The translations under genes were made by a program, and so were the position numbers. The notes under the pieces are model-generated. The model was not told where the DNA came from and searched no databases. It was given only the letters and a program-made list of their open reading frames with translations. From Candidatus Uhrbacteria bacterium (lineage in GTDB: Bacteria; Patescibacteriota; Patescibacteriia; UBA9934; GWF2-40-263): a stretch of DNA of 64,000 bases. The stretch lies in the NCBI GenBank assembly GCA_026395055.1, contig JAPLZK010000004.1:209432-273431 (forward strand). Direction: 5' to 3'. Positions 24,403 to 29,510 of this stretch are shown one piece after another (positions within the stretch are counted from its first letter, which is position 1; every line of letters begins with the position of its first letter).

Positions 24403-25311
24403 TTATATTTCTGCGATTACAATGCGGTCATTTTTTTGCAGGTCTTTTTCTGTTCGTGTAACAGCTTCTGGAAAATAATGTTTAATGAGCTTCACAGACC
24501 GATCTGTTTGATCGGGATCGATTTCGATGAAGACGAATATATTTCTAGGCAGAATCTCCCGATGTTTTTTAAATTGTCGAAATAAGTCCCAGTAGGCATC
24601 TAGGCCATCCACACCCGCCACAAGCGCGCGTACGGGTTCAAAACGGACATCTGGATCAAGGATATCCATTTGTGCTGTGGTGAGATAGGGGAGGTTTGCG
24701 CAGACGATGAGGTCTTTGAATGGATAGACAGATGAAATATTTGGATTGCCGGATGCACGGATGGTTTGAAAGAGATTGATGAGTGGTTCAAGAAGTGAGC
24801 CGTGTTGAAAGTCAATGTGCTCTTCGACCTCGAATGTTTGTGCGTTTCGTTTTGCGGTGATTAACGCGGATTGGTCGATATCAACTGCAAGGACGGGGGT
24901 TTGAGTTTCTGCAGCAAGCGTTACAGCGATCGCTCCAGATCCTGTTCCGATATCCACAAAGAGTGTTTTATCTCGGTCACATGTCGAGAATACATCGAGT
25001 GCTTGTTCAATCATGACTTCTGTTGCAGGGCGAGGAATCAAGACGGAGGGATCCACAAAGAAGTCACGGCCGTAGAATCCTTTTTTGTTTATAAGGTATG
25101 CAACAGGTTCGTGTTTGAGTCGACGGTCCACCAGAATGAAGAACTTTTCTTCTTGATGTGGCTTGAGGTCATCTGCAATGTGTCCAAACAGCCATGATTT
25201 TGGGACCTCTAAAACAGACGCGAGCAAGAGTTCTGCGTCCAGCATGGGAGATTCGATCCCTACTTTCTTTAACTTATTGTTGGCCCATTGAAGCGCCTCA
25301 AGGATTGTCAT
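24403..25311 (-). CDS. prmC: release factor glutamine methyltransferase
   Basis: EPVAY, VLIPRPATE, DIGTGSG, NLPY. Confidence 0.93.
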   Translation of the reverse strand: MTILEALQWANNKLKKVGIESPMLDAELLLASVLEVPKSWLFGHIADDLKPHQEEKFFILVDRRLKHEPVAYLINKKGFYGRDFFVDPSVLIPRPATEVMIEQALDVFSTCDRDKTLFVDIGTGSGAIAVTLAAETQTPVLAVDIDQSALITAKRNAQTFEVEEHIDFQHGSLLEPLINLFQTIRASGNPNISSVYPFKDLIVCANLPYLTTAQMDILDPDVRFEPVRALVAGVDGLDAYWDLFRQFKKHREILPRNIFVFIEIDPDQTDRSVKLIKHYFPEAVTRTEKDLQKNDRIVIAEI

Positions 25312-25345
25312 GCGTTCTACAGTATGGTATTTTCGGAATTTTTAC

Positions 25346-25373
25346 AAAAAGAAAGAGACCCGCAAGGAGTCTC
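25346..25373 (-). terminator. terminator of the candidate ncRNA
   Basis: GAGACTCC-ttgc-GGGTCTC followed by TTTCTTTTT on the minus strand. Confidence 0.75.
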
Positions 25374-26060
25374 GAGAAGAGAGGGGTGAAAAAGATTCCT
25401 GCGAATCCGAAGGGTTCCTGTTTTGGCGAGGTGTTGTCTTGATCGACTGAATGTTTTTTGAGGACGTCCAGTTGGTGACCGAGATGTTGACTTCGTTACT
25501 AGCAGAGAACCCTTCGGAACGCAACTTGATGTCATTGTTCTTTTGAGGGAACGGCACCAAGAAAGTGGTTAGACGAGCAAGCTCATCGTTTTGTTTTAGC
25601 GAGTTTTCAGGTTCGCTTTAACAGAGTTCGCACGATCGCGGTTCAAGTCTTGCGACTTTGGCTTGAGCATTCCATATCTTGCGACTGGGTTTTGCTTGGC
25701 GTGAACGTTGAAAGGGAACTGTTCCACTTTGGATACGATGGTAATTTTGAACATTCGTTCGGCGACAGTACTTGACCGTCATCTACGAATTGAGCTTGCA
25801 CTCTGTCCAATTTCTCACCGGGTCACCAAGCTGTAGCTGGTTCAAGTTGGTCCGGAGACCTATACGTACGCTTTCGCACACGTAGACTGGGAGTTGTCTC
25901 TCCCGATTCGTTGACCGAAGTCATTGAATCACTTGTTTGGTCATTGAAGACCCATGCAACGAGCGAGCTCGCTTGCACGTGAGAGTAATCTCTCAAGATT
26001 CGCACGACCGAAGCCGTTTGAATCGCCAGGCGTTTGTTCTTGCGAACGTCAGCTGAAGGT
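25346..26060 (-). ncRNA. candidate large structured non-coding RNA (about 710 nt), family unassigned
   Basis: No credible ORF; own promoter and terminator; several UUCG/GNRA/CUUG hairpins; 8-12 bp long-range complementarities. Confidence 0.7.
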
Positions 26061-26066
26061 TTTGAA

Positions 26067-26112
26067 ATAATATACGAATAAAATACGAGCGTCAAATGGT
26101 ATCTGTGGATAA
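26067..26112 (-). promoter_or_regulatory. sigma70 promoter TTGACG-17-TATTAT with an upstream DnaA box
   Basis: -35 at 26095-26090, -10 at 26072-26067, TTATCCACA at 26112-26104. Confidence 0.7.
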
Positions 26113-26135: not shown

Positions 26136-26175
26136 ATAAAATAAATCACTCGAATGATCGAGTGATTTATTTTAT
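26136..26175. terminator. 18 bp perfect inverted repeat, probable terminator of the prfA operon
   Basis: ATAAAATAAATCACTCGA-atga-TCGAGTGATTTATTTTAT. Confidence 0.7.
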
Positions 26176-26187
26176 CCGCGCAATTTT

Positions 26188-26862
26188 TTAAGAAATATTT
26201 TTTGTTTTTACGAACTCGAGTTCTTCCGGAGTTCCAATTGGATACCATTCATCTGTCAGAACGACATCGATGGGATTTTTTTCGGATCTGGTGGCGAGTG
26301 TTTGGGGTAAACCGTATTCTTCATGGACACTCCCTTCAATTTTGACGGGCTCAATCTCAAAATATGTTTGATCGAGCACATATGCACCGCAAACACGATA
26401 GCTTTTTGAGCTTGTTGACTCGACGAGACCAATAAATTTTCCATTTGCGTCGAGTTTCCCGCCGTTCATGAGATGCATCTCGGTCGGACAGAGCATGATC
26501 GAGGTGTTGTGAATCAACATCTCGTCGAGAGCCTCTTGAGAATACAAATCATCACCGTTCACGACAAGGAATCGATCGTGCAATCGATTACGGAGCAATA
26601 TCATTGCTCCGCCTGTGCCGTCGAGCGGGTCTTGTGTGACATATCGAACAGGAATGTTTCGATATTCATTGCCTATCTTCGCTTTAATTTGATCGCCTAA
26701 ATAATTCACGACAATAAAAATCTCATCGATTGCTCTTGGAAGCGCGTCGAGTGTGTGTTCAATCAGAGTTTTGTCTCCAATCGGAATAAGTGCTTTTGGC
26801 GTTGTGAGTGTGAATGGTCTGAGACGTGTTCCAAGACCAGCCGCAAGAATAACGGCCTGCAT
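26188..26862 (-). CDS. sugar-phosphate nucleotidyltransferase
   Basis: ILAAGLGTRLRPFTLTTPK, GTGGA, VNGDD. Confidence 0.9.
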   Translation of the reverse strand: MQAVILAAGLGTRLRPFTLTTPKALIPIGDKTLIEHTLDALPRAIDEIFIVVNYLGDQIKAKIGNEYRNIPVRYVTQDPLDGTGGAMILLRNRLHDRFLVVNGDDLYSQEALDEMLIHNTSIMLCPTEMHLMNGGKLDANGKFIGLVESTSSKSYRVCGAYVLDQTYFEIEPVKIEGSVHEEYGLPQTLATRSEKNPIDVVLTDEWYPIGTPEELEFVKTKNIS

Positions 26863-28508: not shown

Positions 28509-29510
28509 TTAGGCGTAGGTATGCATGAGTTGTGCACCCAGGGTTTTGAGGTAATCCCGGCCATAGGGTCCGTTTTCGAGCTTGTCGAACAGGACTTGGG
28601 GCAGATCATTTGGCATACGTGTGGAGGCGATGCCAAGAGCAATTGAGGCAACGGAATCTGTATCACCTCCGAATTGGATGGCTCCTCGAAGCACTTCCGA
28701 CAAGGTCGAACTGTGCGTAAGAAGATCGAAAACGGCGTGAACTGTGTTCGTTGCTGGGGATTTGACGGGGCCATGCCAACGACGATGAAGATTCATCTGA
28801 TGCAACAAGATTGTGTTTGGCAGATGAATTTCCAGAAAATCCTGAAGACGATCAAAGGGATCGTCTCGGTAAAGGGCGAAGTGACTCATGAGAGCCACGG
28901 CTTGTGCGCTGAAGATTCCAATGGGGGTGTCGTGTGTCGTGCTTGCCTGAACGGTTGCAACTTCAAGGAGGGTTTTTGTGTCTTTGATGACACCGAGTGG
29001 AACGGCGCGCATGCACGCTCCATTCTTCTCTGAAGCCGGTTTGATCCGGTCCATGAATTCAATCCCCAATTTTGTCGTTTCAAGAAAAGCTTGGAATCCA
29101 CGTGCATATCCATCGCGAACATTGCGATGAAAGACGCGTGTCCATGCATCCGCAAAATCGAGTTTGGTTGCGTGGAGTTGGCCGTATTCAGGTGTAGCGA
29201 GCACTTCCGCAACACCAATCGACATCTGTGTGTCGTCTGTGTACATCCCGGGCTTCAACTTGTGATGTGTTGGGTGTTGATAGTATCTGTCGAGACGAAG
29301 TGTGTTCGCAATCAGTTGCGCATATACGCGCGGATCGATGTATTCTGTTGCGGCTGCAACTGCGTCGCCGATTGCAATGAACAAAAGCATGTTATCGTTT
29401 CTGTGTTGCATTTCCGTCTCCAAATCCTCGAGGTTCTTGAGCGAGGACAGGGAATCATAGGGTTTTTGCGCGATATCGTCAAGGATTCCTTGACGATTGG
29501 GTTTGGTCAT
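28509..29510 (-). CDS. ADP-ribosylglycohydrolase family protein
   Basis: GDA, YTDDTQM, NGACMR, TH, GGDTDSVASIA. Confidence 0.9.
   Translation of the reverse strand: MTKPNRQGILDDIAQKPYDSLSSLKNLEDLETEMQHRNDNMLLFIAIGDAVAAATEYIDPRVYAQLIANTLRLDRYYQHPTHHKLKPGMYTDDTQMSIGVAEVLATPEYGQLHATKLDFADAWTRVFHRNVRDGYARGFQAFLETTKLGIEFMDRIKPASEKNGACMRAVPLGVIKDTKTLLEVATVQASTTHDTPIGIFSAQAVALMSHFALYRDDPFDRLQDFLEIHLPNTILLHQMNLHRRWHGPVKSPATNTVHAVFDLLTHSSTLSEVLRGAIQFGGDTDSVASIALGIASTRMPNDLPQVLFDKLENGPYGRDYLKTLGAQLMHTYA

Follow-up and report, generated by a model that had tools for sequence, protein, structure and literature searches.

A large, modular structured RNA predicted upstream of prmC in one family of Patescibacteria

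Introduction

Few bacterial RNAs are both large and structured, and those whose function is known are ribozymes or core machines. A gap without a credible coding sequence upstream of prmC in a genome of Candidatus Uhrbacteria raises the question whether another RNA of this kind is encoded there and, if so, what it might do. The gap lies within a 64,000-nt stretch of DNA (assembly GCA_026395055.1, contig JAPLZK010000004.1, positions 209,432 to 273,431 of the forward strand), which we call the window and whose own numbering is used throughout; its genome is referred to as G000. The original prediction, made from the letters of this DNA, had proposed a stand-alone structured RNA of the GOLLD/ROOL/OLE size class with crossing long-range helices. 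We here analyzed the locus, its close homologues and the corresponding slot across the family.

Results

A predicted RNA gene between a nucleotidyltransferase gene and prmC

The gap, previously put at about 875 bp, measures 876 nt between the stop codon of the NTP-transferase gene and prmC, and its longest reading frame comprises at most 96 codons. The proposed promoter-like sequence, TTGACG-17-TATTAT, occupies 26095-26067, and the two proposed terminators are present as terminator-like hairpins (26175-26136 and 25373-25355), all on the minus strand. The tetraloop hairpins named in the prediction were all found at their positions, as were its four perfect long-range complements, of which pairs 1, 2 and 4 cross. 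The predicted fold of the minus strand has a free energy of -227.9 kcal/mol and a z-score of -8.0, compared to a z-score of -4.0 for the plus strand. Among all 700-nt segments of the 1.2-Mb genome, the locus has the top tetraloop density (seven per segment, the maximum, counted with 4-bp stems). The motif TTATCCACA upstream of the promoter is presumably a DnaA-type box, being a perfect match to the consensus. The ends of the RNA were placed from the promoter, the terminator and one contig end, and the resulting features are listed in Table 1. It is very likely that positions 26060-25348 of the minus strand form a stand-alone structured RNA gene. The proposal of a large, structured non-coding RNA of the above size class is thus supported, and the RNA lies outside Rfam. 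What the original prediction had missed is the DnaA-type box, a tandem duplication of a four-hairpin module and the membership in a family locus that varies three-fold in length. Elsewhere in the window, an ADP-ribosylglycohydrolase gene is located directly upstream of rpmE (28509-29510, minus strand).

Table 1. Features of the predicted RNA gene and its flanks (window coordinates)
Feature	Position	Strand	Remarks
Nucleotidyltransferase (PF00483), upstream flank	26188..26853	-	gene name from Pfam
Perfect 18-bp hairpin ending the upstream operon	26136..26175		not conserved in homologues
Candidate DnaA-type box, perfect, TTATCCACA	26104..26112	-	8 nt upstream of the -35 hexamer
Sigma-70-type promoter, TTGACG-17-TATTAT	26067..26095	-	relatives show the same layout
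Predicted structured non-coding RNA, 713 nt	25348..26060	-	first letters are the conserved ACC; based on fold (z -8), homologues, covariation and run contigs
5' domain	25829..26054	-	closed by helix P1 (26054-26050 / 25833-25829); GNRA hairpin 26047-26036; 88% of cells paired
Four-hairpin module, copy 1	25939..26027	-	
Four-hairpin module, copy 2 (tandem duplicate)	25849..25934	-	
P2/P3 multibranch domain with GAGY-GNRA-GCUC hairpin	25740..25819	-	
Core motif UCC-NNN-GURGA	25723..25733	-	5' strands of helix X (25733-25731) and helix Y (25729-25724); invariant in 5/5
Variable interior of helix Y	25569..25722	-	~94 nt deleted in G006 and G007
Helix Y 3' strand (25568-25563) and hairpin W (25561-25555 / 25531-25525)	25525..25568	-	
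Z rod, 124-nt long helix domain	25400..25523	-	25523-25520/25403-25400; 25517-25507/25417-25407; includes the 12-bp pair
GGA, helix X 3' strand	25397..25399	-	
Pyrimidine-rich linker preceding the terminator	25374..25396	-	
Intrinsic-terminator-like hairpin and U tract	25344..25373	-	7/7 pairs kept in 5/5 homologues
prmC, downstream flank	24403..25311	-	gene name from Pfam

Conserved structure in five close homologues

By blastn, the element was found in four of seven genomes of the same genus and in none of 93 others, in each case flanked by the same pair of genes. The resulting set of five sequences (G000 and four homologues) spans 544-757 nt, with the form of G006 being 544 nt long. All five start with ACC and retain the promoter with a perfect DnaA-type box, the terminator and, in the centre, a CCAAAGTGGAA block; the differences between them amount to whole modules. 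The four-hairpin module, for example, is present in two copies in G000 and G002 and in one copy in G004, G006 and G007. Insertions and deletions are not codon-sized, as multiples of three make up only 2 of 29, 1 of 9 and 2 of 16.

A structure of 109 base pairs describes these sequences with 91.7% of the cells paired. The original prediction had named covariation among homologues as a check, and compensatory changes are indeed seen, with 15 of the 109 pairs being changed on both sides across the five homologues. None of 500 shuffles reached these values and slid controls showed 35-44% paired cells, controls that flatter the structure because it was derived from the same five sequences. Hairpin W is paired in 100% of the cells, and four of its pairs vary on one side and one on both sides.

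The crossing long-range helices had been taken to imply pseudoknots, a reading that the homologues do not uphold. Only pair 4 (25507-25518/25406-25417, 12 bp) covaries across the five sequences, with 96.7% of the cells paired and three pairs changed on both sides. Pair 1 (25842-25849/25522-25529) is paired in 66.7% of the cells, its 5' arm is deleted in two of the five sequences and its 3' arm forms hairpin W, while pair 3 (25791-25799/25577-25585) reaches about 61% and has both arms within tetraloop hairpins; the arms of both pairs thus occupy local hairpins that are kept in the homologues. Pair 2 (25821-25829/25472-25480; 80.5% paired, no change on both sides) competes with P1 and with a helix inside the Z cap, and is a possible crossing helix. 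The numbers of perfect complements were also compared to those of shuffled sequences. Complements of at least 8 nt were observed six times versus 3.4 times (43 of 300 shuffles reach six), those of at least 9 nt three times versus 0.9 (23 of 300 reach three) and the 12-nt complement once versus 0.02 (6 of 300 reach one). Hence, only the 12-bp complement exceeds chance, and the other long-range complements mostly do not. No crossing helix with changes on both sides was upheld in the shallow alignment of the five homologues, and no kissing loop or pseudoknot with covariation was found.

A length-variable locus across the family

The DNA upstream of prmC was read in 61 genomes of the family (30 loci and 40 stretches, nine genomes being represented in both), and 69 of these 70 had a prmC match. 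In 42 of the 61 genomes, belonging to 16 genera, the slot holds a promoter-to-terminator unit of 519-1,722 nt, with 11 of the unit boundaries set by hand. The remaining 19 genomes comprise G021 (read in part), nine empty slots with gaps of at most 132 nt, one contig edge and eight unclassified cases, two of which are tetraloop-rich. The latter are the slots of G017 (L062, 1.7 kb) and G032 (L048, 1.6 kb), for which the promoter pattern set no bounds and which are rich in tetraloops on the RNA strand (ten cUUCGg in G017); both are probably further members of the family. None of 28 informative prfA loci of sister families, from 30 fetched of 40, holds such a gap.

The 42 RNAs fall into 18 groups by blastn, and most of them start with TTACCG or a near variant. 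A perfect DnaA-type box is located at most 110 nt upstream of 30 of the 42, compared to 3 of 276 promoter-like sites in G000. Together the RNAs carry 229 GNRA, 72 cUUCGg and 22 gCUUGc hairpins, versus 63, 3 and 2 on the opposite strand and 68, 1.3 and 0.9 in shuffled sequences. The distance between terminator and prmC ranges from about 20 to several hundred nt across the family, and in two genomes of genus g8 tRNA genes lie in between. These tRNA matches span 142 nt (L051:678-819) and 97 nt (L082:1993-2089), and the longer one may carry an insertion. Downstream of the terminator, 19 of the 42 have an extended -10-like motif, a count for which no background was computed.

A shared core and the Z rod

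The motif UCC-NNN-GURGA is found in 13 of the 42 family RNAs versus 0.95 expected and is missing from the other 29. Its UCC can pair with the GGA that follows Z (helix X), and the rest of the motif with a downstream strand (helix Y). Since both helices are invariant in the five close homologues, these sequences are uninformative for X and Y. A fourth X pair forms in all seven motif-bearing RNAs that lie outside the subgroup of G000 and have a mapped Z end (U-A in three, C-G in four) and in only one of the five close homologues. The table of cores behind these comparisons was picked by hand. The equivalents of the core in g7 and g23, which possess G-C or A-U at the place of the fourth X pair, count less because they were chosen for pairing. 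In two g23 RNAs, helix Y encloses only 4-8 nt.

Z is a long helix domain that many members have near the 3' end and that ends in GG. In the 28 RNAs in which it was mapped it measures 87-173 nt (median 115.5), while the whole RNAs run from 519 to 1,237 nt, and its alignment contains a single invariant column. An unconstrained search with a descriptor of the core returned many chance solutions. A rough covariance model of Z (R1) was built from 24 sequences. Within the family it matches 17 of 62 genomes, compared to one of 83 in the rest of the order. The sole match outside the family sits inside an ORF that we take to be primase-like from a zinc-finger motif. Held-out matches in G021, whose genus is outside the training set, G043 and G002 all lie at the slot. 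The genome search with R1 missed genera g2, g4, g8, g12, g18, g25 and g27 as well as the training members G001 and G003, and the model found none among 149 genomes of the wider class besides G000, so that absence outside the family is weakly shown. Several lineages share the core (UCC-N-helix, a 3' rod of about 115 nt and GGA), and the core-bearing lineages probably constitute one homologous family. The 11-nt and IC3 tetraloop receptors, searched as patterns, were found in none of the 42 RNAs.

Divergence and loss

The RNA diverges quickly within its genus. RNase P RNA was found by blastn in six of the seven genomes, with core blocks of 86-94% identity in four of them, compared to four of seven for the giant RNA. 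The two RNA types of the genus track two clades of the neighbouring DUF3048 gene, which makes the variation look like fast vertical change. A swapping of types by recombination, as suggested by the PrmC tree, is not supported by the DUF3048 tree. In genus g16, the carriers G022 and G107 sit among genomes with an empty slot in which the C-terminal part of PrfA is 96-100% identical to that of carriers, and no copy of the RNA was detected elsewhere in five of five of these empty-slot genomes by blastn and pattern. The RNA thus appears to be dispensable, by repeated loss or by loss and regain. In G048 (L021), the upstream genes and the RNA are g5-like, and prmC and DUF3048 share 91% and 85% with G107 (g16-like), as would result from either recombination or an assembly junction right after the RNA.

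Wider searches covered mobile elements and other genomes. No transposase, integrase or reverse transcriptase (RT) is present at the locus, and blastn against phage and plasmid collections gave no match. A 17-nt pattern had 26 matches in viral contigs, none of which extends past the seed. Scans of metagenomes and of genomes with PrmC, which led to 16 and 17 loci, mostly from genomes already included, yielded no new close homologue. The promoter-plus-start pattern had 55 matches in 53 of 401 class genomes versus about 30 control matches, and of 30 such loci read most run into ORFs. Elsewhere in the genome, no long stretch is complementary to the RNA, the best one spanning 15 nt (E 0.67).

Expression evidence

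Part of the stretch is present in three sequencing runs, each from a different study; two of them are RNA libraries and one (X2) is labelled as probably DNA. Their contigs cover positions 25491-26060 and nothing of the NTP-transferase, prmC and DUF3048 genes, and on prfA only short foreign pieces were found. Run X1 contains a 255-nt piece that is 100% identical to the RNA; over 19.9 kb round the tmRNA of the genome it holds only short, partly matching pieces. One X2 contig ends 3 letters beyond 26060, the predicted start. Of the 12 changes in X2, one breaks a pair of the structure model and four form two double changes, and in the hairpin 25884-25863 all 8 of 8 preserve pairs or the GNRA loop. 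In X3, 5 of 17 changes break a pair. The data are unstranded contigs of depth 2-10 from runs chosen for holding the stretch, in which uncovered parts prove nothing alone, and they give a weak indication that the RNA is likely transcribed on its own and abundant.

Comparison with known RNA classes

The comparison to Rfam that had been suggested for this locus gave no match at the gathering score, and a cut-off relaxed to E 10 brought up nothing but sub-threshold noise. Neither the window nor the region nor any of 38 loci, of which 35 come from relatives and pattern matches, showed an Rfam family, apart from tRNAs in two relatives. That the RNA lacks hallmarks of RNase P, tmRNA and introns, as originally noted, was borne out.

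ROOL is reported to equal 16S rRNA in abundance although it is non-essential, and both ROOL and GOLLD are reported to form RNA-only cages held by A-minor and kissing contacts (PMC12286853); three pseudoknots are assigned to ROOL (PMC5737381). The Uhrbacteria RNA resembles ROOL (RF03087) in its size class (ROOL averages 581 nt), its multistem junctions and its few invariant nucleotides, and the patchy loss observed here fits ROOL being abundant but non-essential where studied (PMC5737381, PMC12286853). It differs in having no RF03087 match, a model that also finds none in 14 control genomes, no pseudoknot supported in the shallow alignment of five homologues, a length of 519-1,722 nt and a promoter with a DnaA-type box. 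Unlike ROOL, it resides in a chromosomal single-copy slot upstream of prmC and not in prophages or tRNA islands. The prophage and tRNA setting of ROOL and GOLLD is missing, as the window contains no tRNA and no phage match, and a tRNA lies by the slot in two g8 loci only. With GOLLD (RF02032) it shares a large, ornate architecture with a variable 5' part and a more conserved 3' part, but it is not phage-linked, has a different core and is not matched by RF02032 at the locus; one hit of 15.7 bits lies on another contig.

OLE RNA is conserved in sequence and lies beside oapA, the gene directly downstream. The RNA described here likewise is chromosomal, similar in size (OLE ~600 nt) and equipped with its own promoter and, presumably, an accessory role. 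It differs from OLE by lacking a match to RF01071, by its hypervariable sequence and by its neighbours, the NTP-transferase gene and prmC, the latter being found in the downstream position of oapA. The housekeeping RNAs 6S (RF00013) and SRP (RF01854), neither of which was found in this genome, offer a further comparison, and the Z rod has about the length of 4.5S RNA. The Uhrbacteria RNA is multibranched, three to ten times longer and not matched by either model. An identity with 6S RNA was rejected, as there is no similarity at E up to 10 and the fold is multibranched and not a rod with a central bubble. SRP RNA was discarded on the missing model match, and an Ffh M-domain was found in 0 of 5 family genomes.

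RNase P RNA has its own gene at C3:60852-61406, and its CR-I motif occurs in 0 of 42 family RNAs. This RNase P RNA (L040:1501-2055) is itself 555 nt long, of which about 150 nt (query positions 193-353) form an insertion that varies among genomes of the genus. The gene of tmRNA lies on contig C2, with none in the window. Group I and II introns were rejected as the flanking genes are intact, Rfam gives no hit and the patterns for the P7 and domain V signatures occur in 2/42 and 0/42 family RNAs, with none in this RNA. A retron lacks the adjacent RT; RT genes are present in three of five carrier genomes on other contigs. In G000, the RT domain belongs to a 342-aa frame (C2:116773-117387) with counterparts in G002 and G004. 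A pattern for the 3' end of 16S rRNA was not found in the G000 assembly. The full-text literature searched showed no description of the RNA, a fragment of which could be among the 224 motifs of PMC5737381. We thus consider it likely that the locus represents a new class of large folded RNA, whose function is a prediction only.

Discussion

We favor the interpretation, with a probability of roughly 0.4, that the RNA is an abundant, dispensable self-folding scaffold or particle RNA, which would resemble ROOL and GOLLD in its working without being homologous to them. RNA polymerase would fire at about position 26060 and stop at about 25348, and binding of DnaA to the box, 8 nt ahead of the -35 hexamer, may tune the promoter to the replication state. 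The chain would fold round a four-way core, in which X closes Y, W and the Z rod of about 115 nt and which would carry the function. Tandem duplication may add peripheral hairpin modules and clean deletion may remove them, possibly because they point outward. GNRA loops and A-rich linkers could supply tertiary contacts and contacts between chains, and the RNA would probably assemble, like ROOL and GOLLD, into a particle that is compact or multimeric. Its role would be accessory, such as storage, protection or sequestration in a slow-growing symbiont. Against a scaffold speaks that no kissing loop, pseudoknot with covariation or tetraloop receptor was found, and a cage of fixed symmetry is difficult to reconcile with lengths that vary three-fold.

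The main rival of the scaffold is a protein-binding regulator, in which the Z rod or the core serves as a decoy for RNA polymerase or another factor and replaces 6S, with DnaA tying it to replication. A 6S match is missing from all 141 genomes of the order, an absence that carries little weight as no more than 5 of 14 control genomes gave a match to the 6S model. The strong promoter and terminator of its own and a Z length that stays steady (87-173 nt) in RNAs of 519-1,237 nt would suit a decoy, but similarity to 6S is absent at E up to 10, Z shows by eye no conserved large central bubble, helix Y encloses no more than 4-8 nt in two g23 RNAs, and close relatives and sister families do without the RNA, so that we regard a decoy as rather unlikely. 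A divergence faster than that of RNase P RNA in the genus (blastn 4/7 vs 6/7) and slots that are empty beside carriers with 96-100% identical PrfA C-terminal parts would be expected of a nearly neutral passenger, a once-useful or selfish RNA under weak selection that accretes hairpins and is freely deleted. However, 16 genera retain the promoter, the box and the 5' start as well as the Z rod and the terminator, the genomes are gene-dense, compensatory changes are seen, and the locus lacks transposase, integrase, RT and any phage or plasmid match, which renders a passenger quite unlikely. RNase P and introns combine a small invariant core with variable peripheral parts, and the RNase P RNA of this very genome likewise has a large insertion (555 nt in total). 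A ribozyme or ligand-binding RNA with the UCC/GGA four-way core as active site is nevertheless improbable in our view, given the very few nucleotides invariant across the family (one Z column), signatures of group I, group II and RNase P that are absent or at chance, and RNase P and tmRNA genes that lie elsewhere.

The remaining explanations concern the position of the element. The DnaA-type box in 30 of 42 loci could mark a replication element, either a primer RNA or a DnaA-titration site, but this locus has a single box of 23 genome-wide and the GC skew runs straight through its contig and turns on contig C4 near 70 kb; a replication element is very improbable, and an oriC at the locus was rejected, with the cumulative GC skew minimum near C4:70,000 being the likely origin. 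A terminator ending about 35 nt before the start of prmC on the same strand is what a cis-acting leader or attenuator of prmC would show. This distance varies up to several hundred nt with intervening tRNA genes in two g8 genomes, 19 of 42 have the extended -10-like motif after the terminator (no background computed), and no antiterminator was seen, so that a leader is scarcely credible. The last explanation, a coding sequence in decay or a structure due to chance, can draw on nothing but short frames, the longest having 96 codons; it is refuted by the frame-blind indels, the covariation and the strand bias of the tetraloops and retains practically no probability.

The scaffold and the decoy may also meet in a more specific proposal, which we consider unlikely as a whole: a new class with a fixed four-way core, a rod of about 115 nt and up to 1.2 kb of tetraloop modules that differ in presence from species to species, acting as a size-tunable particle or an RNA-polymerase decoy under DnaA control, replacing 6S in one symbiotic family of Patescibacteria and having look-alikes at other loci in other orders. 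In any case, the RNA has been retained in genomes of 1 Mb in which neither 6S nor SRP RNA is seen, and it changes three-fold in length while promoter, start, core and terminator stay. Natural minimal forms (~520-570 nt) and natural knockouts in close relatives constitute a series for cryo-EM, and the family offers a way to ask how the duplication of modules enlarges an RNA architecture. Through the conserved DnaA-type box at its promoter, this non-coding RNA would be linked to the cell cycle of an uncultured symbiont.

Look-alike units at other loci

An ORF-free, tetraloop-rich unit of about 820 nt was observed at L153:690-1540 in G479, a genome from another order of the class. It lies between genes that we take to be glyA-like and folD-like, and possesses a DnaA-type box, a promoter, a TTACCG start and a terminator, making it a look-alike at another locus. 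It has no Rfam match, no R1 match and no blastn homologue in 60 family genomes. Shorter promoter-to-terminator units of about 250-300 nt, likewise starting with TTACCG and with no Rfam match at the gathering score, were found at L176 (G215), L177 (G295) and L171 (G272). These units, of which L176 and L177 are similar to each other, are candidate small RNAs.
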